A program made the position numbers and the translations under genes. The notes under the pieces were generated by a model, which did no database searches, had not been told where the DNA came from, and saw only the letters and a program-made list of their open reading frames with translations. This document shows, in pieces, positions 20,231-54,257 of a stretch of DNA of 64,000 bases (positions are counted from its first letter, which is position 1; each line of letters opens with the position of its first letter). The DNA comes from Candidatus Tiddalikarchaeum anstoanum (GTDB taxonomy: Archaea > Nanobdellota > Nanobdellia > Tiddalikarchaeales > Tiddalikarchaeaceae). The DNA is taken from NCBI GenBank assembly GCA_902385255.1, contig CABMEV010000003.1, positions 64,813 through 128,812 on the forward strand, given 5' to 3'.

Positions 20231-20764
20231 TTACCAGGGTTCTCTTTTAACACCTATCTTGTATCCTATAATATTGGCAGCCCTGTGGACTATAGGTGTA
20301 AGTACTAGCGCTATTATTACGATGTACCACGAGTAAGGTGTGTAAAACCTAACTGCTATTAATGAGCCTATTATGAAATCCTCCATGTCAAGAAGCCCCA
20401 TATTAGCGCCTCTTGGAAGACCCATCCTTCTCTTGTAAAAACTGCCAATTAAATCCCCAATCATTGCACCTAAACCAATGAATAAGTAAGACAGAGGAGG
20501 CAAGGAGAGAGCTGTAATAGTTGAAGGAAGGATTGATATGAAATAAGTTACTAATAATCCCATTAGATAACCCATTATGGATGCGAGTATTAATCCTTCA
20601 ATAGTTTTACCGTCGCCAAACACCCGGTTCTTCCCAATCTTCAAGCCGAAATCTAAAGGGTGCTTCTTGAAAGGCATCCTGATAAGAAAAGGAGGAGAAC
20701 CGTTCGCGATATAAGCTGGAATCAGTATTTGAAGCGTTTGAACTATAATATCAGCCAAAATCAT
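20231..20764 (-). CDS. carS: CDP-archaeol synthase (CarS family)
   Basis: 177 aa polytopic membrane protein with AYIANGSPP, HPLDFG, FGDGKTIEG and SFYKRRMGLPRG...DMEDF motifs characteristic of CarS; divergent from a CDP-alcohol phosphatidyltransferase gene. Confidence 0.65.
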   Translation of the reverse strand: MILADIIVQTLQILIPAYIANGSPPFLIRMPFKKHPLDFGLKIGKNRVFGDGKTIEGLILASIMGYLMGLLVTYFISILPSTITALSLPPLSYLFIGLGAMIGDLIGSFYKRRMGLPRGANMGLLDMEDFIIGSLIAVRFYTPYSWYIVIIALVLTPIVHRAANIIGYKIGVKREPW

Positions 20765-24134: not shown

Positions 24135-24704
24135 ATGATATTGCTATTATTGTTCCTTTACTCTTACCTGATAGGCAGTTTTCCTACAGCGTATTTACTG
24201 GTGGAACTTTTTAAGAAAAAAAACATATTAAGACTGGGCGACGGAAACAACGGCGCCTATAATGTGTTAAAAGTTACAAAAAATTTAGGCATAACAAGTA
24301 TAGTCTTATTAATAGACGCGTTTAAAGGTGCACTAGTAGCACTGACTTATTCTTATTTTGAAAATTCAAACACAGCAGTTTTAGTTGCCTTGTCTGGTTT
24401 ACTATTAGGACATGATTATTCAATATGGCTGAATTTTAAAGGAGGTAAGGGCTTGGCTTCAGCATTCGGTGCAATGTTAATATTAGCGCCTGAATTTGTA
24501 ATAATCACATCTGTTCTTTATTTGTTGGCGTTGTTTTTAGTCAGGAAAGCTGAGCTGGCTGGATTAATCATCACCCCCGTACTTTTAGCATTAATGTTCA
24601 TCCTGAGACCTAGCCTCTTACTGCCTGCTTTCATCACAGGTTTATTAATATGCCTGAAAGATATAATTAAACTCTTAAATAGGAAAAAAGTATCAATATT
24701 TTAA
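24135..24704 (+). CDS. plsY: PlsY-like glycerol-3-phosphate acyltransferase family protein
   Basis: GSFPTAYLLVELF...RLGDGNNGAYNVLKV...LLIDAFKGALVA resembles the PlsY pattern (G-S-x-P-x-x-Y ... G-S-G-N-x-G-A-T-N ... D-x-x-K-G). Identified by motif memory only. Confidence 0.5.
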   Translation: MILLLLFLYSYLIGSFPTAYLLVELFKKKNILRLGDGNNGAYNVLKVTKNLGITSIVLLIDAFKGALVALTYSYFENSNTAVLVALSGLLLGHDYSIWLNFKGGKGLASAFGAMLILAPEFVIITSVLYLLALFLVRKAELAGLIITPVLLALMFILRPSLLLPAFITGLLICLKDIIKLLNRKKVSIF

Positions 24705-25642: not shown

Positions 25643-25857
25643 CGAGCATCCACTATTTTTATCGCGCCCCTTGGACAGTACTGCATTGCTGAAATATTCT
25701 GTCCTATTTTTTTTAATTTAATCTTTATAGCGTGCGCTTTTTCATCATCAAGTATTTCCCAATTTCCCGGGCATACCTTGACGCATATACCGCAGCCGTT
25801 GCATTTTTCGCGGTTTACAATTATCCTATAAAATTTCTCTTGCTTTGCCATTCTCAA
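25639..25857 (-). CDS. Small 4Fe-4S ferredoxin-like protein
   Basis: CNGCGICVKVCP plus a distal CP motif (QYCPRGA). Confidence 0.5.
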   Translation of the reverse strand: MRMAKQEKFYRIIVNREKCNGCGICVKVCPGNWEILDDEKAHAIKIKLKKIGQNISAMQYCPRGAIKIVDAR

Positions 25858-26776
25858 ATAACACCTTGTACAATTTGCTAATCAGAGGAGCATTAATCTT
25901 CCTCTTGTCTATTACTTTCTTGACTATCTTAATGGCATTTATGCCTTCAACAGTCTGGCCTACATCTTTAAGCGCTTCCTCAACGCTGAAACCCTTGGCC
26001 AGTTTTTCACCAAAACGCCTGTTCCTGCTGTGAATACTATTGCAAGTTACAATTAAGTCGCCAACACCTGCGAGAGAGTGCACTGTTTCACCGTCGCCTC
26101 CCATTATCTTGACAATTTCAGAAAGTTCTTTAAGCCCCATGCTTATAATCCCTGCCTTTGTATTATCGCCATAACCTAAGCCGTCAACTATCCCTGTCGC
26201 TATCGCGATTATATTCTTTAAGGCGCTGCACCATTCTACTCCAATAATATCACTGGTTGTAGTAATATTATAATACTCATTCTTGAACGCGTTAACCGCT
26301 GATTTTAACGCTTTAGAATCAGTTGATGCAAAGACTACATAAGTTGGAACCTTTAAAGCCACCTCGTTGGCTATGCTAGGGCCCCCTATTGACACTATTT
26401 TATTCTTAACAACATCGCTTATTACCTCGCTCATCCTCTTGTCAGTCTCATCCTCCAAACCCTTGGCAGTGTTAACTATCACTGACTTTTTTGGAATAAA
26501 ATTTGAAGATTTCACTATGACACTTTTTACGATATTGGACGGGAGCGATACCACAACTAGTTCAGCATTCTTCAATGACTCCTCAATGTTTGACGTTGCA
26601 GTAATATCCTTCTTTAATTCAACGCCCTGCAAGTACTTGTTATTCTTATGATTCTGATTGATGTCTTTGTTGACATCATCTTCTATGCTCCACAAAATTA
26701 CTTTATGATTATTATCCCCGAGCAGTTTAGCAATGGCTGTGCCCATATTCCCTGCGCCGAGTATTGTAATATTCAT
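25826..26776 (-). CDS. gpsA: NAD(P)H-dependent glycerol-3-phosphate dehydrogenase (GpsA family)
   Basis: N-terminal ITILGAGNMGTAIA Rossmann motif; central GPSIANEVA, IGVEWCSALKNIIAIATGIVDGLGYGDNTKAG and AGVGDLIVTC...SRNRRFG blocks typical of GpsA. Confidence 0.75.
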   Translation of the reverse strand: MNITILGAGNMGTAIAKLLGDNNHKVILWSIEDDVNKDINQNHKNNKYLQGVELKKDITATSNIEESLKNAELVVVSLPSNIVKSVIVKSSNFIPKKSVIVNTAKGLEDETDKRMSEVISDVVKNKIVSIGGPSIANEVALKVPTYVVFASTDSKALKSAVNAFKNEYYNITTTSDIIGVEWCSALKNIIAIATGIVDGLGYGDNTKAGIISMGLKELSEIVKIMGGDGETVHSLAGVGDLIVTCNSIHSRNRRFGEKLAKGFSVEEALKDVGQTVEGINAIKIVKKVIDKRKINAPLISKLYKVLFENGKAREIL

Positions 26777-37509: not shown

Positions 37510-38076
37510 ATGGGTTTGTCATTAGAAAAACTGGTTTATTTGCACGAAAAGGTCAATGAGTCACTGCTTAATAAAAAACCAGTTCTGGAGAGTTCTAATT
37601 TAAAAGGCAAAAAACTGATTTTATTAGGCTATACTGATTATCTTCCTTTTGATACTATAGAAAGACTTTCAAATTATGGAATCGGAAAGAATAATATATA
37701 CCTTGTAGAAGTTCCTCAGGAAGCTTTTGACAGCTTTTCTAAATTTAATTCTTATTCACAGGCGGATTTTCTTAGCGAATCACTTAAAAAAAGTACAGGT
37801 ACTCCGGAATCACCATGCTTAAACATTGCAAAACTGCTTTTTTTTGAACCTTATTTTATGGTTCCTGTCGCGGATGACTCATTTAAGAATGAGGTACGTG
37901 ACAGCGTAATAGACAGGTATGTACTGTCATGGATTGATGTGATTGGAAAAAACTTGGACCCCACCCTGTTTAATGACATAGTTTTCTTTGGAGGAAAACT
38001 TCATGTAAACTATTTGGAACTTAAAGCAAAACTTGGCAGGTTTAACAATCTAAACTACAAAATTAAGATATTCTAA
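37510..38076 (+). CDS. Hypothetical protein
   Basis: 188 aa, no motif recognised. Confidence 0.25.
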   Translation: MGLSLEKLVYLHEKVNESLLNKKPVLESSNLKGKKLILLGYTDYLPFDTIERLSNYGIGKNNIYLVEVPQEAFDSFSKFNSYSQADFLSESLKKSTGTPESPCLNIAKLLFFEPYFMVPVADDSFKNEVRDSVIDRYVLSWIDVIGKNLDPTLFNDIVFFGGKLHVNYLELKAKLGRFNNLNYKIKIF

Positions 38077-38080
38077 TAAC

Positions 38081-38887
38081 TTATTGAAATTCAGGTTCTT
38101 CATCTATTTGATATTTTTCTTCAACAGTGCTGTTGTAACTTTTTATGAGTTCGTTTTTTATTGCTTTAGGATTGGATGCGAATACTAATTGTTTATTGTT
38201 AACTGATAAATCAAACATTTGCTTTGATGCGTTTATTACATCAATATCAGTCAATAATCCGAATGTTTTGTCCCCGCCGTAAAAATTTTCATTTGATAGC
38301 CTCAATGCTTCTTTTTTGATGGCTAAGTACATATCTTCGAAAAAAACGTATTTTTTTTGTATAATATCCCTTTTAATCTTAAGAAATTCTGAAACTTTAA
38401 TATCTGGATTTTTATCTAATATAGTTAACACATTATTTGCCATTTTTTTTGTAATACTTGTATATATGTCTCTTTCGCTGAAATTTAAACGGGAGACATC
38501 GGAGCATAATGAATCTACAAACTCGTTTACTTTGGAATTTACTTCATGTTTGTGCGCTTCTTCTAACTCTTCTTTTATATATTCCCTGATTAACTTTAAT
38601 GTGTTCTTTTCATTTTCCTTGTAATTGAATTGTGAAGCGATTATTTTATTGGCGATGTAGTAACTGCAGTTTTTTAATTTGTTAATCTCATCGTTAGTAT
38701 AGTTTTGTTCGCCTCTTGATGTTGCAACTAGATAAGTTATATTTGCTAACAACTCAAAGTCTTTATTACTTTCAGCAGCCAGCTCTTTCAATGGCGTGAG
38801 TATACTATCTAATGAAACCATGCCCAATCTAGAAATGAATCCCTTTATAAGTATTTCTAATTTGTTGTCACTTTGTGGTGGTTGCAT
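38081..38887 (-). CDS. Hypothetical protein
   Basis: 268 aa, no motif recognised; start abuts the stop of the upstream ORF (38887). Confidence 0.25.
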   Translation of the reverse strand: MQPPQSDNKLEILIKGFISRLGMVSLDSILTPLKELAAESNKDFELLANITYLVATSRGEQNYTNDEINKLKNCSYYIANKIIASQFNYKENEKNTLKLIREYIKEELEEAHKHEVNSKVNEFVDSLCSDVSRLNFSERDIYTSITKKMANNVLTILDKNPDIKVSEFLKIKRDIIQKKYVFFEDMYLAIKKEALRLSNENFYGGDKTFGLLTDIDVINASKQMFDLSVNNKQLVFASNPKAIKNELIKSYNSTVEEKYQIDEEPEFQ

Positions 38888-39393
38888 TACTCATCGTCTG
38901 TTATTAAAGGCATTTCCTGAACCACGTTTAAGGCTTTTTTGAGCATTTCAGAGCTAACTACATTATATTTATTTTTGCATTTTTTAATTAAATCAGTATT
39001 AATATAAGGATATATAAAACTCAGTTTTGAAGAAATAGTGTCATTATTCACGCTAAGAACCCTTAACAAATAAGTGTATTCTTTATTGAAACTAAGCAGC
39101 CTCAATTTGTACTCATTATCCCTTTTATGATAGCAGAAACTAACATTAGTAAAGACATCTTTCATTAAATTCTTGTTCTTAATCGATGAGTTAATCTTTC
39201 TTTCAAGGGAGTTAACGCTGGAATCTAACTTTTCTATTATTTTTATAATATTATCCTCAACTGTAAATATGGCAACATTTAAATCAGTATTTAATAAGCC
39301 CAAACTTACATAACCCTCGCTTTTAACTAAGGGTTTTATTAGCAAAGCTGCATCATTGGCGCTTCCGTGTTCAAGAATTTCATACAAGTTCAT
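38887..39393 (-). CDS. Hypothetical protein
   Basis: 168 aa, no motif recognised. Confidence 0.25.
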   Translation of the reverse strand: MNLYEILEHGSANDAALLIKPLVKSEGYVSLGLLNTDLNVAIFTVEDNIIKIIEKLDSSVNSLERKINSSIKNKNLMKDVFTNVSFCYHKRDNEYKLRLLSFNKEYTYLLRVLSVNNDTISSKLSFIYPYINTDLIKKCKNKYNVVSSEMLKKALNVVQEMPLITDDE

Positions 39394-39527
39394 TAAAAAT
39401 CAAAAAAAATTAATGTTCTATCTCTTTTAAGGTTTAGTCTTAATCACTTAGTGGTAACCTTCATTTTTTTGTAACTACTCTTTAGTAAAACTATCTTTTT
39501 TAAATAAGAACTCTTGGACTAACAATT

Positions 39528-40115
39528 ATGGGTTTAGAGTCTGCTTTAAAAATTGAAATAATCGGATTCAACACGATGGCAGTTAAAGTGCCTGCTTTTT
39601 TTTATGATATCAAAGGAAGATTCACAGCGTTTTACGATATTCCTTTTGCAAAAAACAGTAATCCAAACATTGACTGCAGCAACATACCTTTTGGGGTTTA
39701 TTCATGCTTAAACACAAAATTGAGTTATAACCTTCCGAAGGAAGAATTCTGCGAGAAAATAAATAACATAATTGAGAAAAATACAGGCTTGAAGATAAAT
39801 GATATTGTACTCGAATCAGTGTACGTGTTGAAGGATAATTTCACAATATGCGTGCCAATAGGCTGCATAAATGAAACCCGTTTCGAAAGAAGTTTAGCTG
39901 TTACGAAAAACATAATAGACTCACTTGGGAGACGCAAGTTTATAACTGATTTAAAAATATTCCTAGCCGAGCCTCAGATGGGATTCGTAGAACACTTTTT
40001 GAAGATTAAATACAGCCATGCGGGTATTTCCATTGTTAATAAGTCGCAGTTTGAGACCAAACAACACATAATTGATAAGGATATCAGCAGTGCAGCAGAC
40101 TTTGGTATATTATGA
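39528..40115 (+). CDS. Hypothetical protein
   Basis: 195 aa, no motif recognised. Confidence 0.25.
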   Translation: MGLESALKIEIIGFNTMAVKVPAFFYDIKGRFTAFYDIPFAKNSNPNIDCSNIPFGVYSCLNTKLSYNLPKEEFCEKINNIIEKNTGLKINDIVLESVYVLKDNFTICVPIGCINETRFERSLAVTKNIIDSLGRRKFITDLKIFLAEPQMGFVEHFLKIKYSHAGISIVNKSQFETKQHIIDKDISSAADFGIL

Positions 40116-41054
40116 TTACAGCGGCTTTTGTAAAACTTCATGTACAGCTTCGTCAATAATGCTTGTTCTGTTCAAGCTTACTCCTTCAAACATGCTACTT
40201 CCCACCTTATCAAGATAAACAACTATTGAAATTTTAACCGTGTCATTCAATTCTTGTTCACTGATTTTTCCAAGTTTGTTTATCGCGTTTCTTATATCAA
40301 TTTTTAATTTATCAAAACTGACTTTAACGCTATTTTTTTTATTGTCTAGTAATTCCTTAGTGTTTAGTAAATTTTTAACCTTGCTTATAAATCCGATTTC
40401 CTCGCCAAATACTAGCATTAAGTCTCTCTTAGGCAGGTTAATTATAACTTCAACAGATTCATTTTTTAATCTTTTATACTCATTATTTTCTATAAACTCA
40501 GAAACTTTTTTATTGTCTATTGATGCTATATTCATTTCAGTTATTATGCCGTGAATTAACGTGTCTAATCTTACACCTATTTGAGTTTCACCTTTGCCTT
40601 CAGTGAATAAGGACATAGCATATTGATCTTCTAATAAGCGTATATAACTGTTTAATTCATCTTTTATTACATTAATATTCTCTATTGTTAATATGAACTT
40701 TCTTTCTTCATCAGTAATTTTCATGAATACCCTTTTTTCCCTGTCATTTAAGCCTTTAGGTTTTTCCTTTAATCTTTCAAAATCATCCATCTCTTTCTTG
40801 ACTTCTTTCTTGAGTTCAGCCTTTCTTTTAGGGTCGTGGAAGAATTCATGCTTTTCTTTTAAAAAAATAAATGCGTTAAAAGTTTTTTTATCTTGGTCAT
40901 TCATAGATAGAAATTCATTCTTTTCTTCATCATTTAAATCATTGAAGAAGTCTCTGTCTTCCTTAGTCATTTTTTCATAATCTTTTTTTGACTGTTCAGA
41001 TATTCTAAAAGACTTGTCAGCTATATTAGCCAGCACTTCGTCAGGGGTTACCAT
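40116..41054 (-). CDS. Highly charged coiled-coil-like hypothetical protein
   Basis: 312 aa, K/E/D-rich helical composition. Confidence 0.3.
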   Translation of the reverse strand: MVTPDEVLANIADKSFRISEQSKKDYEKMTKEDRDFFNDLNDEEKNEFLSMNDQDKKTFNAFIFLKEKHEFFHDPKRKAELKKEVKKEMDDFERLKEKPKGLNDREKRVFMKITDEERKFILTIENINVIKDELNSYIRLLEDQYAMSLFTEGKGETQIGVRLDTLIHGIITEMNIASIDNKKVSEFIENNEYKRLKNESVEVIINLPKRDLMLVFGEEIGFISKVKNLLNTKELLDNKKNSVKVSFDKLKIDIRNAINKLGKISEQELNDTVKISIVVYLDKVGSSMFEGVSLNRTSIIDEAVHEVLQKPL

Positions 41055-41085: not shown

Positions 41086-41616
41086 CTATTTTGCTTTTTT
41101 AGCTATAAAGTTAAGAAGTGCTTTTCCGGCTATGCTAACGTCGCTGTTTGAGCCGTCAATAACTATATCAGGATTCACATTAGGCGCGGTTTTTGCCCTT
41201 TCAATGCGCCGTTGAACCTCTGGTTCAGCCTCCCTGCCTCTCTTTGATAATCGCTCTTCAATAAGAGAGATTGGGGCTGTAATTTCAACAGTCACCGAAC
41301 TAGGCCATTTTGTTTTTGCATCACCTAAGGCGTCTCTGCTGATATTCACAATATAATTCCTGCCTTTCTTCAAGCCTTCAATAACATCTTTACCAATGCC
41401 GTACAACTTGTCATAAGACTCCCACCATAAGAAATAATCACTCTTTTTGAAATCCTCCTTCTTGACTGACACGAAATCCTCAGTCTCCACTGAAGAAGGC
41501 CTGGTAATAAACCTCTTAACATGAGTAACATTCGGATTCCTATTGCAGGCCCATTCTATAATTGCATCCTTGCCGCTGCCACTGTTGCCGACCACTAAGA
41601 ATAATAATCCTTTCAT
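41086..41616 (-). CDS. phnN: PhnN-like ribose 1,5-bisphosphate phosphokinase family protein
   Basis: Aligns by eye along its length with E. coli PhnN as recalled: LFLVVGNSGSGKDAI (P-loop), RFITRPSS, WESYDKLYGIG, YIVNISRDAL, RLSKRGREAEPEVQRRIERA. Confidence 0.65.
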   Translation of the reverse strand: MKGLLFLVVGNSGSGKDAIIEWACNRNPNVTHVKRFITRPSSVETEDFVSVKKEDFKKSDYFLWWESYDKLYGIGKDVIEGLKKGRNYIVNISRDALGDAKTKWPSSVTVEITAPISLIEERLSKRGREAEPEVQRRIERAKTAPNVNPDIVIDGSNSDVSIAGKALLNFIAKKAK

Positions 41617-42218
41617 ATGTCTATTATTACTCCACTCTTTCCGGCATTAACAATTTTAGTCTTTCCTAAATAATCTGTTAACCCGAAAGTTTCGTGAATG
41701 TGACCGCAGACTACAAGGTCCGGCTTGTAAGTTTCAATAATCTTTCTTATATCCGCGCTGCCTGCATTAGTCCAGCCTATATTATCAAGCTTGGTGTCCA
41801 ATGGAGGTTCATGCGTCAGTAAGACTGTTTTTTTGCCTTTCGATTTTTTAAAATTCACCTTTAAACTCTTAAACAAGTCATCATCAGGGCTTCCTATGAA
41901 TCCGAAACTGGTTCCGCCGGCGCCGAGGACTGCAACGTCGCCGAATAATTTATAGTAAGAATGAATATTATACACGCCTTTCCCGTACTTCTCGCTCAGG
42001 AAATCCATATCCATCGGAGTATCATGGTTTCCATGAACCATTAAAACCTCTATTCCCTCTTTCTTAAAGGGTCCGATTAAGCCATTGCCATCGCTGCCCA
42101 TCTCTAATATGTCGCCGCAAAGCACGACTAAGTCAACCTTGTTCTTTTTAGCCTTCTTAGCTAACTTCTCAGCTGCCTTCTTGTCAGAATGCAGGTCGCT
42201 TGCTGCAAGTATCTTCAT
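41613..42218 (-). CDS. Metallophosphoesterase (calcineurin-like)
   Basis: DLH, GD, GNHD and GHIHE motifs in canonical order; stop overlaps the start of the PhnN-like gene by 4 nt. Confidence 0.7.
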   Translation of the reverse strand: MKILAASDLHSDKKAAEKLAKKAKKNKVDLVVLCGDILEMGSDGNGLIGPFKKEGIEVLMVHGNHDTPMDMDFLSEKYGKGVYNIHSYYKLFGDVAVLGAGGTSFGFIGSPDDDLFKSLKVNFKKSKGKKTVLLTHEPPLDTKLDNIGWTNAGSADIRKIIETYKPDLVVCGHIHETFGLTDYLGKTKIVNAGKSGVIIDI

Positions 42219-42272
42219 AAAACAAGTATAATTAGTTTTTTTCTTATTTAAAAAAATTGTTAAAGAAGGTTG

Positions 42273-44852
42273 TTAGACGCCTGTATTTTTATAAAACAGT
42301 TTCTTAGCCAGTTCAGCAGTTATAAAATAGGCTATTAATACGCCGCTCACGAATAACAGGATATTTATAGGCATGTATACGAATTCAAACAAATCCTTCC
42401 CAATCACTGTATAAGTTATTACAAACGTGAATATTATGGTTATTATTGATGCTAATAGCAGCCAACTGCTTGGTTTACTCTTAAATAAACTAAGCCTTGT
42501 TCTTATTGCGAACGTAATTATTATCTCCGATAATGCGGACTCAATAAACCATGCGGTCCTAAAGAGTTCAACATTCGCATTGAATAAGTACATAAGCCCG
42601 AATATTAACACTAAGTCGAAAAAAGTGCTAATTCCACCGAAGTAAACCATAAATTTTGATATAAAACTAATATCCCATTTTTTGGGCTTTTTCAAAAATT
42701 CTTCGTCAACGTTATCGGTGACTATGGTAAGGAGAGGTATGTCGCTTACGAAATTATTCAATAATATCTGAGACGGAAGGAGTGGTATGAAGTTAAGGAA
42801 GAGTGACGATGCGGCAACTGTGAACATGTTTCCGAAATTTGCACTGATAGTGTTTAATATGTACTTAGTTATATTAGCGAATATTTTCCTTCCTTCTTTT
42901 ATTCCTTCTGTTAAAACTTCCAGGCTCTTATTTAACAGGATAACATCAGCAGCCTCTTTTGCTATGCCTGTGCCTGAGTCTACGGATATTCCTACATCTG
43001 CAGCCCTGAGAGCGGGTGCGTCATTCGCTCCGTCCCCTAAGAATCCGACAATGTGGCCTTCCTTGTTTAATACTTCAACTATCCTGTACTTCTTGTCAGG
43101 GTCTATTCTTGCAAAGACATTATACTTGGATACATATTCCTCAAAAACGCCGTCCTTTAATTTGTCCAATTCTTCGCCGGTAATTACAGTATTATCAACT
43201 ATTTGGAATCCAACCTCTTCGCAGATCTTCCTCGTGACTAATGGGCTGTCTCCTGTTATTATCTTAATTGAGACTCCGAGTTTTTTTAAGCTCATTATGG
43301 ATTCCTTGGCGCTTTTTTTCGGAGGGTCAATGAATATCAAAAATCCTTCAAAGTTCATCCTGCATTCGTCGCTCTTAGTGATATCTTTTTTTTCAATGAT
43401 TTTTGAGGCTACGGATATTATTGTAAAACCCTGTGATTCGTAGCTTAACACTCTCTTTTTTATTTCTGCAAGTTTTTCCTTTGTGATAACGGAGTGGTCA
43501 AAGTTAGTGCAAACTTCCAGTATCCACTCTGGTGCGCCTTTCGCAATCAAAACATTTTCCTTACCCATCCTGACAAGAACGCTCATCCTTTTTCGTTTGA
43601 AGTCGAATTCGTTAGTGTCAAGTTCATCATAATTATCTATTTTCTTCTCAAAATCTTTTGCGAACTTGCTTTCCCATATTGCCTTATCAATATAGTTCCC
43701 AAAGAATCCTCCTTTCTTAACCTGTTTTACCTGTTTTACCTGTTTTGATGTATTGCATAATAAACCGTAAAGGAGCACTTTTTCACTCCTTTTTCCTTCG
43801 CTGTTTAAGTAATCCACCAGTTCGAAATTATTATTTGTCAAAGTCCCGGTCTTATCACAGCATACTGTGTCAATGTTTCCGAAATCCTCAAGTGATGATA
43901 ATTTTTTCACAACTACTTTCTTCTTAGCCATGAATATTGCGCCGTTTGACAGCGTGATAGTTATGATTATTGGCAGCGCTTCAGGTATTATACCAACAGC
44001 AAGTGCCACTGCAAACAGGAAAGACTCGAATATACCCTTTCCGAGCACTGCATTGGCGATGAATATGAAAACAGTCATTAAGAGTATCACTTTAAGCAGC
44101 ATGTCGCTGAATGTCCTGATGTTTTTTTGGAATTCATCCTCATGAGCTTTTTGTTTAATCTTCGTGGCCATACTGCCCATGAATGTGTTCTCTCCAGTCT
44201 GGATTACTACGCCTCTTCCTTCGCCGCTTGCAACGGAAGTTCCCATGAATGCGACATTCCTCAGGTATTGAGGGAGCGACCTTGTCTCATTGCTGGTCTT
44301 TACCTCTTTAAGCACAGGAACTGATTCGCCAGTCAGAACTGATTCATCAGTGACTAATTCATCTACGTGAACAAGCCTTATGTCGGCAGTAACTATATCC
44401 CCCAAGTTTAACAGCACTATATCTCCCGGCACTAAATTTTTAGCGTCAACTTCCTCCTCTTCGCCGTCTCGCAAAACCTTCGCCTTTAATGTTATGTACT
44501 TTCTTAATTCTTCAACAACTTTTTCCGCCTTATACTCCTGGAAGAATCCCAGGAAGCTGTTAAGTAATACTATTACAATGATAACTATTGCTTCAGTATG
44601 CTCCCCTAAGAAATAAGATATCACTGCAGCTATGACTAAAGTGAAAATTAACGGGCTTTTAAACTGGGATACTAATATGTCAGACCAGTTTCTTCTTCCA
44701 TTTGTCTTAATCTCATTATAACCGTACTTATTTATTCTTGACAGCGCGTCATCACTGTTAAGTCCTTTATCAGAACTTTCCAGCTTCTTTAACACTTCAT
44801 GTTCAGGCAGAGCCCATAATAATTCCTTAACGCCGCCGCTGTCCATAACCAC
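42273..44852 (-). CDS. Cation-transporting P-type ATPase (Ca2+/Mg2+-type)
   Basis: Phosphorylation motif CCDKTGTLT, TGES, hinge GDGANDAPAL, and about ten TM helices. Confidence 0.85.
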   Translation of the reverse strand: MVMDSGGVKELLWALPEHEVLKKLESSDKGLNSDDALSRINKYGYNEIKTNGRRNWSDILVSQFKSPLIFTLVIAAVISYFLGEHTEAIVIIVIVLLNSFLGFFQEYKAEKVVEELRKYITLKAKVLRDGEEEEVDAKNLVPGDIVLLNLGDIVTADIRLVHVDELVTDESVLTGESVPVLKEVKTSNETRSLPQYLRNVAFMGTSVASGEGRGVVIQTGENTFMGSMATKIKQKAHEDEFQKNIRTFSDMLLKVILLMTVFIFIANAVLGKGIFESFLFAVALAVGIIPEALPIIITITLSNGAIFMAKKKVVVKKLSSLEDFGNIDTVCCDKTGTLTNNNFELVDYLNSEGKRSEKVLLYGLLCNTSKQVKQVKQVKKGGFFGNYIDKAIWESKFAKDFEKKIDNYDELDTNEFDFKRKRMSVLVRMGKENVLIAKGAPEWILEVCTNFDHSVITKEKLAEIKKRVLSYESQGFTIISVASKIIEKKDITKSDECRMNFEGFLIFIDPPKKSAKESIMSLKKLGVSIKIITGDSPLVTRKICEEVGFQIVDNTVITGEELDKLKDGVFEEYVSKYNVFARIDPDKKYRIVEVLNKEGHIVGFLGDGANDAPALRAADVGISVDSGTGIAKEAADVILLNKSLEVLTEGIKEGRKIFANITKYILNTISANFGNMFTVAASSLFLNFIPLLPSQILLNNFVSDIPLLTIVTDNVDEEFLKKPKKWDISFISKFMVYFGGISTFFDLVLIFGLMYLFNANVELFRTAWFIESALSEIIITFAIRTRLSLFKSKPSSWLLLASIITIIFTFVITYTVIGKDLFEFVYMPINILLFVSGVLIAYFITAELAKKLFYKNTGV

Positions 44853-52104: not shown

Positions 52105-52887
52105 TCACTTTAAATTTTTAATTATTTCACTAATTTTGTCTCTTATTTTAAAGCTTTCCTCAACGCATTGCTCAATTTCTTTGACATTAAAGCCGCCTTT
52201 CCCGCCTTTCTGCATTGCGTTTATTTCGCCTTCACTGCAGGTTATAGTAAGCCTGGCGTCGCTAATTTGTTCTTCATCAGAGTCCGGGTCTATAAGGAGG
52301 GTGTCATCTATTTTTACAAACGTTGTTGGTATTGGAACCTTTATGAAAGGTATTTTTCCATTGCTCCACTCGCCTAATACTACCTGGTTCTTAGCATCCA
52401 ATTTTGGCATTTTTGCATTCTTTAATGCTGAAATTGCCGCTAAGCCGCAGGCGTCGATTAAGTTGCCGTCATTGTTTAATATATATACGTCAACGAATAC
52501 GTTCCAGACTTTCTCTCCTGGAATTATGCATAACTTGTCTATATCTATCGCTCCGCTCTCCCTTATTCCCCTGTCGACAACCCTTGATAATTCTATAGCA
52601 TCCTCTGTTGGAGGTCCTGGTTCGAACTTCACATCTGATATGGCGCTTAATTCAACATTGCATACCAAGTTTCCGGAATTAGGAGTGTCAGGGTAAGGTG
52701 TTCCCACACTCATCTTCACACCTGCTATTACCTGCGTGTCGCCTATCCTTAACAATGCGCTTCCTTCTGCGTTCTTGCTGACATCAGTCTCTACGCTTAT
52801 TGGCCTGTAATCGTTCATTCTTCTGTCCCTGTTTCTTAACTTCTTGTCAGCCAGTGCAAGTATGTATTCTCTTAATTCTTTCTTCAT
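52105..52887 (-). CDS. rrp42: Exosome complex component Rrp42 (RNase PH-like, non-catalytic)
   Basis: RNase PH fold motifs (DYRPISVETDV..AEGSALLRIGDTQVIAGVK; EPGPPTEDAIELSRVVDRGIRES; LNNDGNLIDACGLAAISAL). Confidence 0.75.
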   Translation of the reverse strand: MKKELREYILALADKKLRNRDRRMNDYRPISVETDVSKNAEGSALLRIGDTQVIAGVKMSVGTPYPDTPNSGNLVCNVELSAISDVKFEPGPPTEDAIELSRVVDRGIRESGAIDIDKLCIIPGEKVWNVFVDVYILNNDGNLIDACGLAAISALKNAKMPKLDAKNQVVLGEWSNGKIPFIKVPIPTTFVKIDDTLLIDPDSDEEQISDARLTITCSEGEINAMQKGGKGGFNVKEIEQCVEESFKIRDKISEIIKNLK

Positions 52888-54257
52888 TTCTTGTCATCCC
52901 CGATTTTTTTGGCTGCAACTTTTGCTTCTTTTAACAATTTGCTCGTAATCTCCCCTTCATCAGCGTACTTTTTCAGGACGTCCTCGTTTATGAGTTCTCC
53001 TTTCCCGTCTTTTTTAACGACTGCTAATTCCAGGTTTATAGTTGCAGCTTTCTCAGTCTGCAGTTCTACAGGCGTGTTTATTATGTATACTTCACCTTTC
53101 AGTTTATTATCCTCAGAGTAGAACGAATGCTTCGTGTACCATGCGTCTTTTTTAAGCTCTGTCAGCGCATAATCGCCTCTGTCAAAGATAATGTCTAATC
53201 CGTTATACTTTGAGCCGCTTTTCATGAAGCGCTTCAGCACTATCTTGTTCTCATCTCTTTTTTCAATCCTTCCTTTTAAGAAATTTGTAGTGCCATCAAG
53301 CCTGTACTCTGCAGCAAGGTATAAGTCTCCTTCCTTCGGAGCTTTTGATAAGACAAAACTCTCTATTTCCTTGTTTAATTTCTTCTCATTGAATCCTGCC
53401 TTTATCAAATTCTCGCTGAAGTCCACGACGTTGTGGAAATTATCTGTCTTGTAAGTGTGGTGGTTTTCAACTGTTGGCTTAACTTCACGTCTTAATGCAT
53501 CAAGAGTTTCTTTTGCAGTCTTGTCAAACCGCATATATACAGTTATTAATCCTTTTCTTATCAGTTTAGGGCCTTCTTCTTTTTCGAATTTCTCTTTTAT
53601 CTTGTCGTAATCCTTGTATAAGTCGTCGATTTCTTTTTTCAATTCGTCATCTTTCTTGTCCTGCGCGCTGCTCTTCCATAATATGCCCCATCCTTCCTTG
53701 CATTTCTCGTCAGTTATCTTGTTCAGTCTCACTGACTCTTCCCTATCTCGGATGTTGCTGCTTAATTTCGTGAATCCTTTCTGGATTAGTACAGTATCAG
53801 GTCCGAAGATGTGTATCTTCGTGCTTAATGTGTAGCATTCAGGGTCTTCCTCTTTTAACTGCACTAGGATTTTCTCCCCTTCCTTCACATAGCCCCAGTA
53901 ATCTTTGAGCGGAAGGAGTCCTATCTTTTTCAGTCCCAAGTCTACGTGAATATTCTTAGTGTTAGGGTCCAGTTTTATTATCTTACCAAGGTATATGTGG
54001 CCGGATTCTTCTTTTTTTACGGCTACGTGCTCCACATCATCCATTATTACCTTAGTTACTTTCTCGCTCTCTTCGCCTTTTATTACTATTCCATTCTTGT
54101 CAGCTAAGTCATGTATAATAGTATCATAGTCCTCGTCGAATTTGGCTTTCTTGAAAGAATCTTTTACATTCTCGCTTGGACTGCTTACTTTTATTTTATT
54201 TTTCAGTAGTAGCTGTGTTAATGCACTACTATAAATTCCTCTGATTTTTACACTCAT
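52884..54257 (-). CDS. FAU-1-like RNA-binding protein (RNase E/G-like, DUF402-containing family)
   Basis: N-terminus MSVKIRGIYSSALTQLLL resembles archaeal FAU-1 N-termini as recalled; 457 aa. Translationally coupled (4-nt overlaps) between Rrp41 and Rrp42. Confidence 0.5.
   Translation of the reverse strand: MSVKIRGIYSSALTQLLLKNKIKVSSPSENVKDSFKKAKFDEDYDTIIHDLADKNGIVIKGEESEKVTKVIMDDVEHVAVKKEESGHIYLGKIIKLDPNTKNIHVDLGLKKIGLLPLKDYWGYVKEGEKILVQLKEEDPECYTLSTKIHIFGPDTVLIQKGFTKLSSNIRDREESVRLNKITDEKCKEGWGILWKSSAQDKKDDELKKEIDDLYKDYDKIKEKFEKEEGPKLIRKGLITVYMRFDKTAKETLDALRREVKPTVENHHTYKTDNFHNVVDFSENLIKAGFNEKKLNKEIESFVLSKAPKEGDLYLAAEYRLDGTTNFLKGRIEKRDENKIVLKRFMKSGSKYNGLDIIFDRGDYALTELKKDAWYTKHSFYSEDNKLKGEVYIINTPVELQTEKAATINLELAVVKKDGKGELINEDVLKKYADEGEITSKLLKEAKVAAKKIGDDKK

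Follow-up and report, generated by a model that had tools for sequence, protein, structure and literature searches.

The window analysed here is a stretch of 64,000 nucleotides (nt) from the host-dependent DPANN archaeon Candidatus Tiddalikarchaeum anstoanum (contig CABMEV010000003.1). On its reverse strand it carries a gene for a PhnN-like P-loop kinase, which directly follows a gene for a calcineurin-like metallophosphoesterase (MPE). Both open reading frames (ORFs) were recovered where a sequence-only reading of the window had placed them, and the upstream product, which that reading had called a metallophosphoesterase, was matched by PF00149 with 79 bits. At NCBI, a protein of the same organism entered as 'Ribose 1,5-bisphosphate phosphokinase PhnN' shows 100% identity to the kinase, and one entered as CpdA in that record shows 100% identity to the MPE. 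Homologues are numerous and conserved for kinase and MPE alike and the structures predicted with AlphaFold2 are confident (predicted local distance difference test, pLDDT, 93.3 and 92.2, respectively); both genes are therefore real. The content of the window was surveyed by Pfam scans of 58 predicted proteins, which represent nearly all non-nested ORFs of at least 110 amino acids (aa). Archaeal genes in the window include those for exosome Rrp4/41/42, aIF5B, TYW3, TBP, MCM, RFC and RNase J.

Family membership of the kinase was assessed with curated profiles. The match to PhnN along the whole protein, which the sequence-only reading had described, was reproduced with the PhnN equivalog model TIGR02322 (121.7 bits, E 2.6e-35, residues 3-173 on profile positions 1-178 of 179). 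The guanylate-kinase model TIGR03263 gave 54 bits (cutoff 160) and thus fell 68 bits behind. The profile comparison between PhnN and guanylate-kinase-like relatives that had been proposed was accordingly decided in favour of PhnN, but the score stayed below the equivalog cutoff of 156. The sole Pfam match was Guanylate_kin (27 bits). In every relative scored the PhnN model was ahead of the guanylate-kinase (Gmk) model by 45-105 bits, and the TIGR02322 scores formed a gradient, from Lokiarchaeial relatives, which pass the cutoff (158-170 bits), over other Asgard and Woesearchaeota sequences (130-154 bits) to the clade of the window (100-122 bits). An exhaustive search of representatives returned 2292 relatives at E<=1e-3, 889 of them at E<=1e-10.

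Residues were compared in an alignment of 91 subfamily members that also included PhnN and Gmk from the E. coli K-12 genome. Nine positions (D17, R35, W65, N91, S93, R94, R128, E129 and R140) were invariant in all 91 members and identical in E. coli PhnN; the residues of E. coli Gmk there are S, S, A, D, D, W, Q, D and Q. Conversely, the guanine- and GMP-binding residues S38, R45, E73 and D104 of Gmk (E. coli numbering) correspond to R35, S42, L63 and S93 in the kinase, and the alignment places two extra arginines in its acceptor site. Judged from the alignment together with published structural knowledge of Gmk, the loss of base-recognition residues and the gain of two arginines would fit an acceptor that carries a second phosphate and no base.

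The AlphaFold2 model of the kinase showed a Gmk-like nucleoside monophosphate (NMP) kinase fold (TM score 0.84-0.88, 20-24% identity). Overall identity to E. coli PhnN is 28%, and identity to P0180, a fusion of PhnN with a metallo-beta-lactamase (MBL) domain (PhnN-PhnP), is 34-36%. P0180 was used as an operon-validated PhnN reference because it sits in a canonical carbon-phosphorus (C-P) lyase operon, phnD-C-E-M-G-H-I-J-K-L-[N-P]-O. In a rough neighbour-joining tree all PhnN-type sequences were found together, apart from Gmk, and the clade of the window was sister to a group of Asgard, Woesearchaeota and Desulfobacterales sequences. The kinase is thus, with high confidence, a genuine but divergent member of the PhnN family in terms of homology.

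The distribution of the subfamily was determined by scanning GTDB species representatives with the P-loop pattern GNS[GA]SGKD[STA], and 148 relatives were confirmed. The best 80 of these comprised about 65 Asgard sequences (including that of the cultured P. syntrophicum MK-D1), three from Nanoarchaeota, one each from Woesearchaeota and Bathyarchaeota, and about seven from Desulfobacterales. About 90 loci, archaeal and related ones, were examined, and none had phnG, H, I, J, M or P near the relative; on this ground the subfamily was regarded as stand-alone. The statement of the sequence-only reading that the window holds no further phn gene likewise held in the Pfam scans. Matches to PhnK and PhnL near archaeal homologues were set aside as generic ABC-ATPase matches. 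Papers that link PhnN with DPANN or Asgard archaea, or that mention a PhnN of archaea at all, were not found in the literature searched.

Two types of neighbourhood were recognised in Asgard genomes, one with a DtxR-like regulator and a DHH esterase and the other with chorismate synthase, shikimate kinase and flavodoxin. The first is shared by locus L009 (4598-8321) and about 45 other Lokiarchaeial loci and begins with a divergent DtxR-like regulator and a 252-aa protein without an assigned role. After these come the PhnN-like kinase, a product of 150 aa with similarity to the methanogenesis marker 9 domain (74.6 bits, under the cutoff) and a DHH/DHHA1 phosphoesterase, the last of which lies downstream of the kinase gene in 23 Lokiarchaeial loci. 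The same arrangement (clusters 1, 2, 3, 4, 7, 8) was seen on a 9-kb contig labelled Candidatus Nanopelagicaceae bacterium (DATKTW010000051.1, L048), which probably belongs to an Asgard genome and was mis-binned into an actinobacterial metagenome-assembled genome (MAG). In genomes of the MK-D1 type (Promethearchaeum syntrophicum MK-D1, L073 9992-13011; also L008 and L011) the PhnN-like gene is preceded by a gene for a protein of 780-1010 aa without a family match and followed by a chorismate synthase or shikimate-kinase-like gene, a flavodoxin-like gene and a divergent HAD/NUDIX hydrolase gene. Homologues of the MPE do not adjoin the Asgard kinases, which have these other neighbours, and homologues of three further window genes (those for an MgtA-type ATPase, a 312-aa protein and a fusion of methylthioadenosine (MTA) phosphorylase, MTAP, with adenine phosphoribosyltransferase, APRT) were not found near the kinase in other genomes.

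Table 1. Genes and sequence features of the kinase locus, with positions in the window.
Feature	Position	Strand	Description
P-loop kinase, 176 aa	41086..41616	-	divergent stand-alone member of the PhnN family (ribose 1,5-bisphosphate phosphokinase, PRPP-forming)
Calcineurin-like MPE, 201 aa	41613..42218	-	COG2129/TT1561 type, 'Icc-related'; likely phosphodiesterase
ATGA stop/start overlap, MPE to kinase	41613..41616	-	4 nt, read from the sequence; probable translational coupling
AT-rich intergenic region 5' of MPE, 54 nt	42219..42272	-	TATA-like TTTTTTAAATAA about 31 nt before ATG
MTAP-APRT fusion, 431 aa	60079..61374	-	TIGR01694 and TIGR01090, both above cutoff

The arrangement of MPE and kinase was compared across related genomes. 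An MPE homologue directly upstream of the kinase was found in the Tiddalikarchaeales/CG07-land clade only; there the ATGA junction was kept in six of six distinct lineages, all of one DPANN order, with kinases 51-56% and MPEs 62-71% identical. The flanks are rearranged: the relatives have the order RNase J ... MPE-kinase ... TFB, whereas in the window MgtA is inserted upstream and the ORFs downstream are unrelated and low in GC. MPE-kinase is a real, conserved operonic arrangement in one DPANN order, and the TATA-like element in front of the MPE gene is a putative archaeal promoter of the bicistron. The two-gene unit suggested by the sequence-only reading stood in so far as the 4-nt overlap is real and conserved, but the pair is confined to that order. 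As evidence of coupling the overlap by itself was set aside, because overlaps occur in 9 of the 35 same-strand neighbour pairs of the window (four of exactly 4 nt), unrelated genes such as those for GpsA and pyruvate kinase included.

Several observations weigh against a strict functional unit. The MPE family gave 741 matches across DPANN, as compared with about 13 DPANN homologues of the kinase; MPE orthologues with 42-47% identity follow RNase J or a Hel308-type helicase at loci that lack a nearby kinase gene; and the Asgard kinases lack an adjoining MPE, as described above. The MPE, a widespread DPANN gene, is probably the older of the two, the kinase having been added downstream of it in the Tiddalikarchaeales lineage. 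Directly upstream of one MPE orthologue, a called gene of 1009 aa with RNase J and class-I Glx-tRNA synthetase domains was found (L094, 1940-4969), which represents a genuine fusion or else two genes merged in gene calling.

In the window, the gene upstream of the MPE encodes an MgtA-type P-type ATPase (42273-44852(-); TIGR01524, 713.8 bits, above cutoff). Relative to the synteny of the relatives, this gene and three small ORFs are inserted between RNase J and the MPE. The 312-aa ORF downstream of the kinase has no family match. The region 37510-41054, with a GC content of 0.30 at 38-40 kb, holds five ORFs without meaningful family matches or homologues in the syntenic loci of the relatives; it takes the place of the TFB gene that follows the kinase there and may be an insertion or a variable island.

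The MPE carries all five metal motifs of its family (DxH / GD / GNH[DE] / H / GHxH), and the metal-binding residues D8, H10, D36, N64, H65, H136, H173 and H175 were invariant in 31 homologues. Besides PF00149, it was matched by PF12850 (63 bits) and PF14582 (61.5 bits). The predicted structure has the MPE fold, and Foldseek placed 1uf3 (TT1561) and 2yvt (aq_1956) at the top, followed by Rv0805 and GpdQ and then by MPPED2 and Mre11/SbcD. From sequence and model, the protein is most probably a phosphodiesterase. PhnP has an MBL fold and belongs to a phn operon; the MPE is of the calcineurin type and no other phn gene was found in the window, so that it could be a functional analogue of PhnP at most.

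Fusions of the kinase domain were surveyed among 20 multi-domain or longer relatives from the top 150 family representatives. PhnN-type domains were found joined to MBL (PhnP-like, four cases), DUF1045 (2H-phosphoesterase-like, three), HD (one), PhnG (one), Phos_pyr_kin (two) and a glycerate-kinase-like module (one); a Metallophos-PhnN fusion was not among them. As a kinase-plus-phosphodiesterase module is recurrent, a PhnP-like role for the MPE is plausible, though we rate it as unlikely.

As to function, the kinase would most likely use the gamma-phosphate of ATP to phosphorylate ribose 1,5-bisphosphate (R15P) at its 1-phosphate and so form 5-phosphoribosyl 1-pyrophosphate (PRPP). It would be co-transcribed, and probably translationally coupled, with the COG2129-type binuclear metallophosphodiesterase, and its product would feed salvage phosphoribosyltransferases such as the MTAP-APRT fusion encoded 19 kb away. 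The APRT that the sequence-only reading had named as a PRPP consumer in the window is present, but as the C-terminal half of that 431-aa fusion: TIGR01694 (MTAP) matched residues 10-251 with 281.3 bits (cutoff 274.85) and TIGR01090 (APRT) residues 262-424 with 223.3 bits (cutoff 185.85), in agreement with the Pfam matches PNP_UDP_1 and Pribosyltran. The fusion, which is not in the same operon, is a likely client of the product of the kinase. It would channel adenine from MTA or adenosine directly to AMP, for which PRPP is needed.

We consider it fairly probable that the kinase is a PRPP-forming R15P kinase that serves salvage. The profile scores, the residue pattern and the similarity to P0180 described above point in this direction, and so do the ATGA junction, kept in all six lineages despite rearranged flanks, and the chemistry of the NMP-kinase fold, which is the phosphorylation of a phosphate acceptor. 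According to the published account of the Candidatus Tiddalikarchaeum anstoanum MAG (PMC8561730), purines and pyrimidines are not made de novo, a proper pentose pathway is lacking and 'only the last enzyme' for PRPP synthesis is present. A non-canonical supply of PRPP makes sense in an organism without a pentose pathway and de novo nucleotide synthesis. In E. coli a route from ribose 5-phosphate over ribose 1-phosphate (R1P) and R15P to PRPP by way of PhnN was established genetically, and it was taken up for archaea by Sato et al. (PMC9700705), who noted archaea in which a nucleoside phosphorylase and an R1P kinase occur while no enzyme that consumes R15P is known (Sato et al. 2022).

A number of points count against this assignment. 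The TIGR02322 score lies under the equivalog cutoff. The PDB was searched for a PhnN structure that would give substrate contacts and none was found, guanylate kinases being the only PDB relatives by sequence and fold. The subfamily has no characterised archaeal member, and the Asgard neighbourhoods are heterogeneous and give no independent pointer to R15P. Neither AMP phosphorylase nor R1P kinase, either of which would produce R15P, was found among the window ORFs scanned, nor were R15P isomerase, RuBisCO and Prs; the link to the AMP-phosphorylase/RuBisCO pathway that the sequence-only reading had proposed thus drew no support from the window. Finally, the wording 'only the last enzyme' in PMC8561730 is ambiguous as to Prs.

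The readings that compete with an R15P kinase for salvage differ in the role given to the MPE and in the acceptor given to the kinase. The pair might act as a two-step module comparable to PhnP and PhnN, in which R15P arises when the MPE opens 5-phosphoribosyl 1,2-cyclic phosphate (PRcP) or a similar cyclic phosphate of ribose, and PRPP is then remade by the kinase; this would amount to a PRPP recycling or repair loop independent of C-P lyase and appears unlikely, though it is the most probable of these readings. PhnN-type domains are repeatedly fused to phosphodiesterases of different folds (one such fusion lies in a canonical C-P lyase operon), the DHH/DHHA1 esterase accompanies the kinase in Lokiarchaeial loci, the ATGA junction was retained despite rearranged flanks, and the characterised proteins structurally closest to the MPE, Rv0805 and GpdQ, are phosphodiesterases. 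PRPP has moreover been reported to hydrolyse spontaneously to PRcP (bioRxiv 10.1101/2024.02.11.579819), so that a source of PRcP independent of C-P lyase would exist. These points are offset by the wide occurrence of the MPE family relative to the kinase in DPANN, by its orthologues behind RNase J or the Hel308-type helicase where the kinase is absent nearby, by the missing Metallophos-PhnN fusion among those scanned and by the frequency of short overlaps between unrelated genes in this genome. In its most far-reaching form the proposal would make the MPE a non-orthologous replacement of PhnP in a C-P-lyase-independent loop (PRPP to PRcP, to R15P by the MPE and back to PRPP by the kinase), and the 'GNS' PhnN subfamily of Asgard and DPANN archaea the missing link from R15P to PRPP in archaea that make R15P without a known enzyme to use it; this we regard as unlikely.

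The kinase could also have drifted to another acceptor, for instance a different sugar bisphosphate or phosphorylated metabolite, the PhnN label then standing for homology only. The low score, the modest identity to E. coli PhnN, the constant position outside phn operons and the location of some Asgard homologues among shikimate-pathway genes would suit such a drift; the nine PhnN-specific residues, invariant across the subfamily and in E. coli PhnN, and the continuous score gradient up to members that pass the cutoff speak against it and make it quite improbable. In bacterial Pnkp a P-loop kinase is joined to a calcineurin-type phosphoesterase, and across DPANN the MPE orthologues show synteny with RNase J or a Hel308-type helicase. 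A similar RNA end-healing unit, in which the MPE would be a 2',3'-cyclic phosphodiesterase or phosphatase, the kinase would phosphorylate 5'-OH polynucleotide ends and both would work in concert with the nearby RNase J, is nonetheless very improbable: the kinase matches PhnN and Gmk models only, has the PhnN signature residues and shows no match to a polynucleotide kinase family, the MgtA-type ATPase and small ORFs separate RNase J from the pair, and neither a ligase nor a Hen1 gene lies nearby in the window. That the protein is the guanylate kinase of the organism, as its sole Pfam match and its PDB relatives might imply, is scarcely credible in view of the replacement of S38, R45, E73 and D104 by R, S, L and S and of a Gmk equivalog score far below the cutoff.

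The PhnN label of the gene is already present in databases; the novelty lies in recognising a stand-alone archaeal subfamily and a possible esterase partner. Given R15P, a stand-alone PhnN-type kinase would explain the source of PRPP in DPANN archaea that lack pentose phosphate and de novo nucleotide pathways, and it would give a fate to R15P from archaeal nucleoside and nucleotide phosphorylase pathways. Were the recycling loop real, it would save scarce ribose phosphate in an archaeon unable to make pentoses. As the subfamily is common among Asgard archaea and occurs in the cultured Promethearchaeum syntrophicum MK-D1, the prediction is testable in a cultivable organism. The practical value would lie in better metabolic reconstruction of host-dependent archaea; no new biochemical principle is involved.

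Two other groups of genes in the window were recorded. Lipid genes at 24135-24704(+), 25826-26776(-) and 20231-20764(-) include bacterial-type ones for glycerol-3-phosphate acyltransferase PlsY (PF02660) and NAD-dependent glycerol-3-phosphate dehydrogenase GpsA (PF01210/PF07479), which occur near genes for the archaeal CDP-archaeol synthase CarS and a CDP-alcohol phosphatidyltransferase. A gene for a 457-aa protein with an RNase E/G-family domain (52884-54257(-); PF10150, 40.8 bits) lies between RNase PH-type exosome genes (Rrp41/Rrp42-like), with a 4-nt overlap with both, just downstream of Rrp4.

Among known systems, E. coli PhnN (EC 2.7.4.23; TIGR02322) resembles the kinase in length, in full-length collinear alignment, in the GxSGxGKD P-loop, in the nine signature residues, in the Gmk-like fold and in the predicted chemistry (R15P + ATP to PRPP + ADP). 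A role of the E. coli enzyme in PRPP supply that is independent of C-P lyase has been described (Hove-Jensen 2003, as cited in PMC9700705). The kinase of the window differs from it in never adjoining C-P lyase genes, in belonging to an archaeal-dominated subfamily with a GNS[GA]SGKD P-loop and in being paired with a calcineurin-type esterase rather than with the MBL enzyme PhnP. A kinase and a phosphodiesterase are likewise joined in one expression unit in bacterial PhnN-PhnP fusions and in the phnN/phnP genes of the C-P lyase operon; in the window, however, the esterase is a binuclear MPE instead of an MBL enzyme and is not fused to the kinase, and a C-P lyase that could form PRcP is absent. 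With Gmk the kinase shares the fold, the P-loop, the LID arginines and phosphate-acceptor kinase chemistry, but the guanine-recognition residues are replaced, the acceptor site has extra arginines and identity is low.

TT1561 (1uf3) and aq_1956 (2yvt), members of COG2129 ('Icc-related'), are the best structural matches of the MPE (TM score 0.77-0.79) and are of similar size with the same metal motifs; they are, however, only about 20% identical to it and are structural-genomics proteins without an assigned function, so that no substrate of the MPE can be derived from them. The archaeal pentose bisphosphate pathway (AMP phosphorylase or R1P kinase to R15P, then R15P isomerase and RuBisCO) has R15P as its central intermediate, and R15P is also the predicted substrate of the kinase. 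None of the enzymes of that pathway is among the window ORFs scanned, and the kinase would divert R15P to PRPP, and thus to anabolic salvage, instead of to central carbon metabolism.

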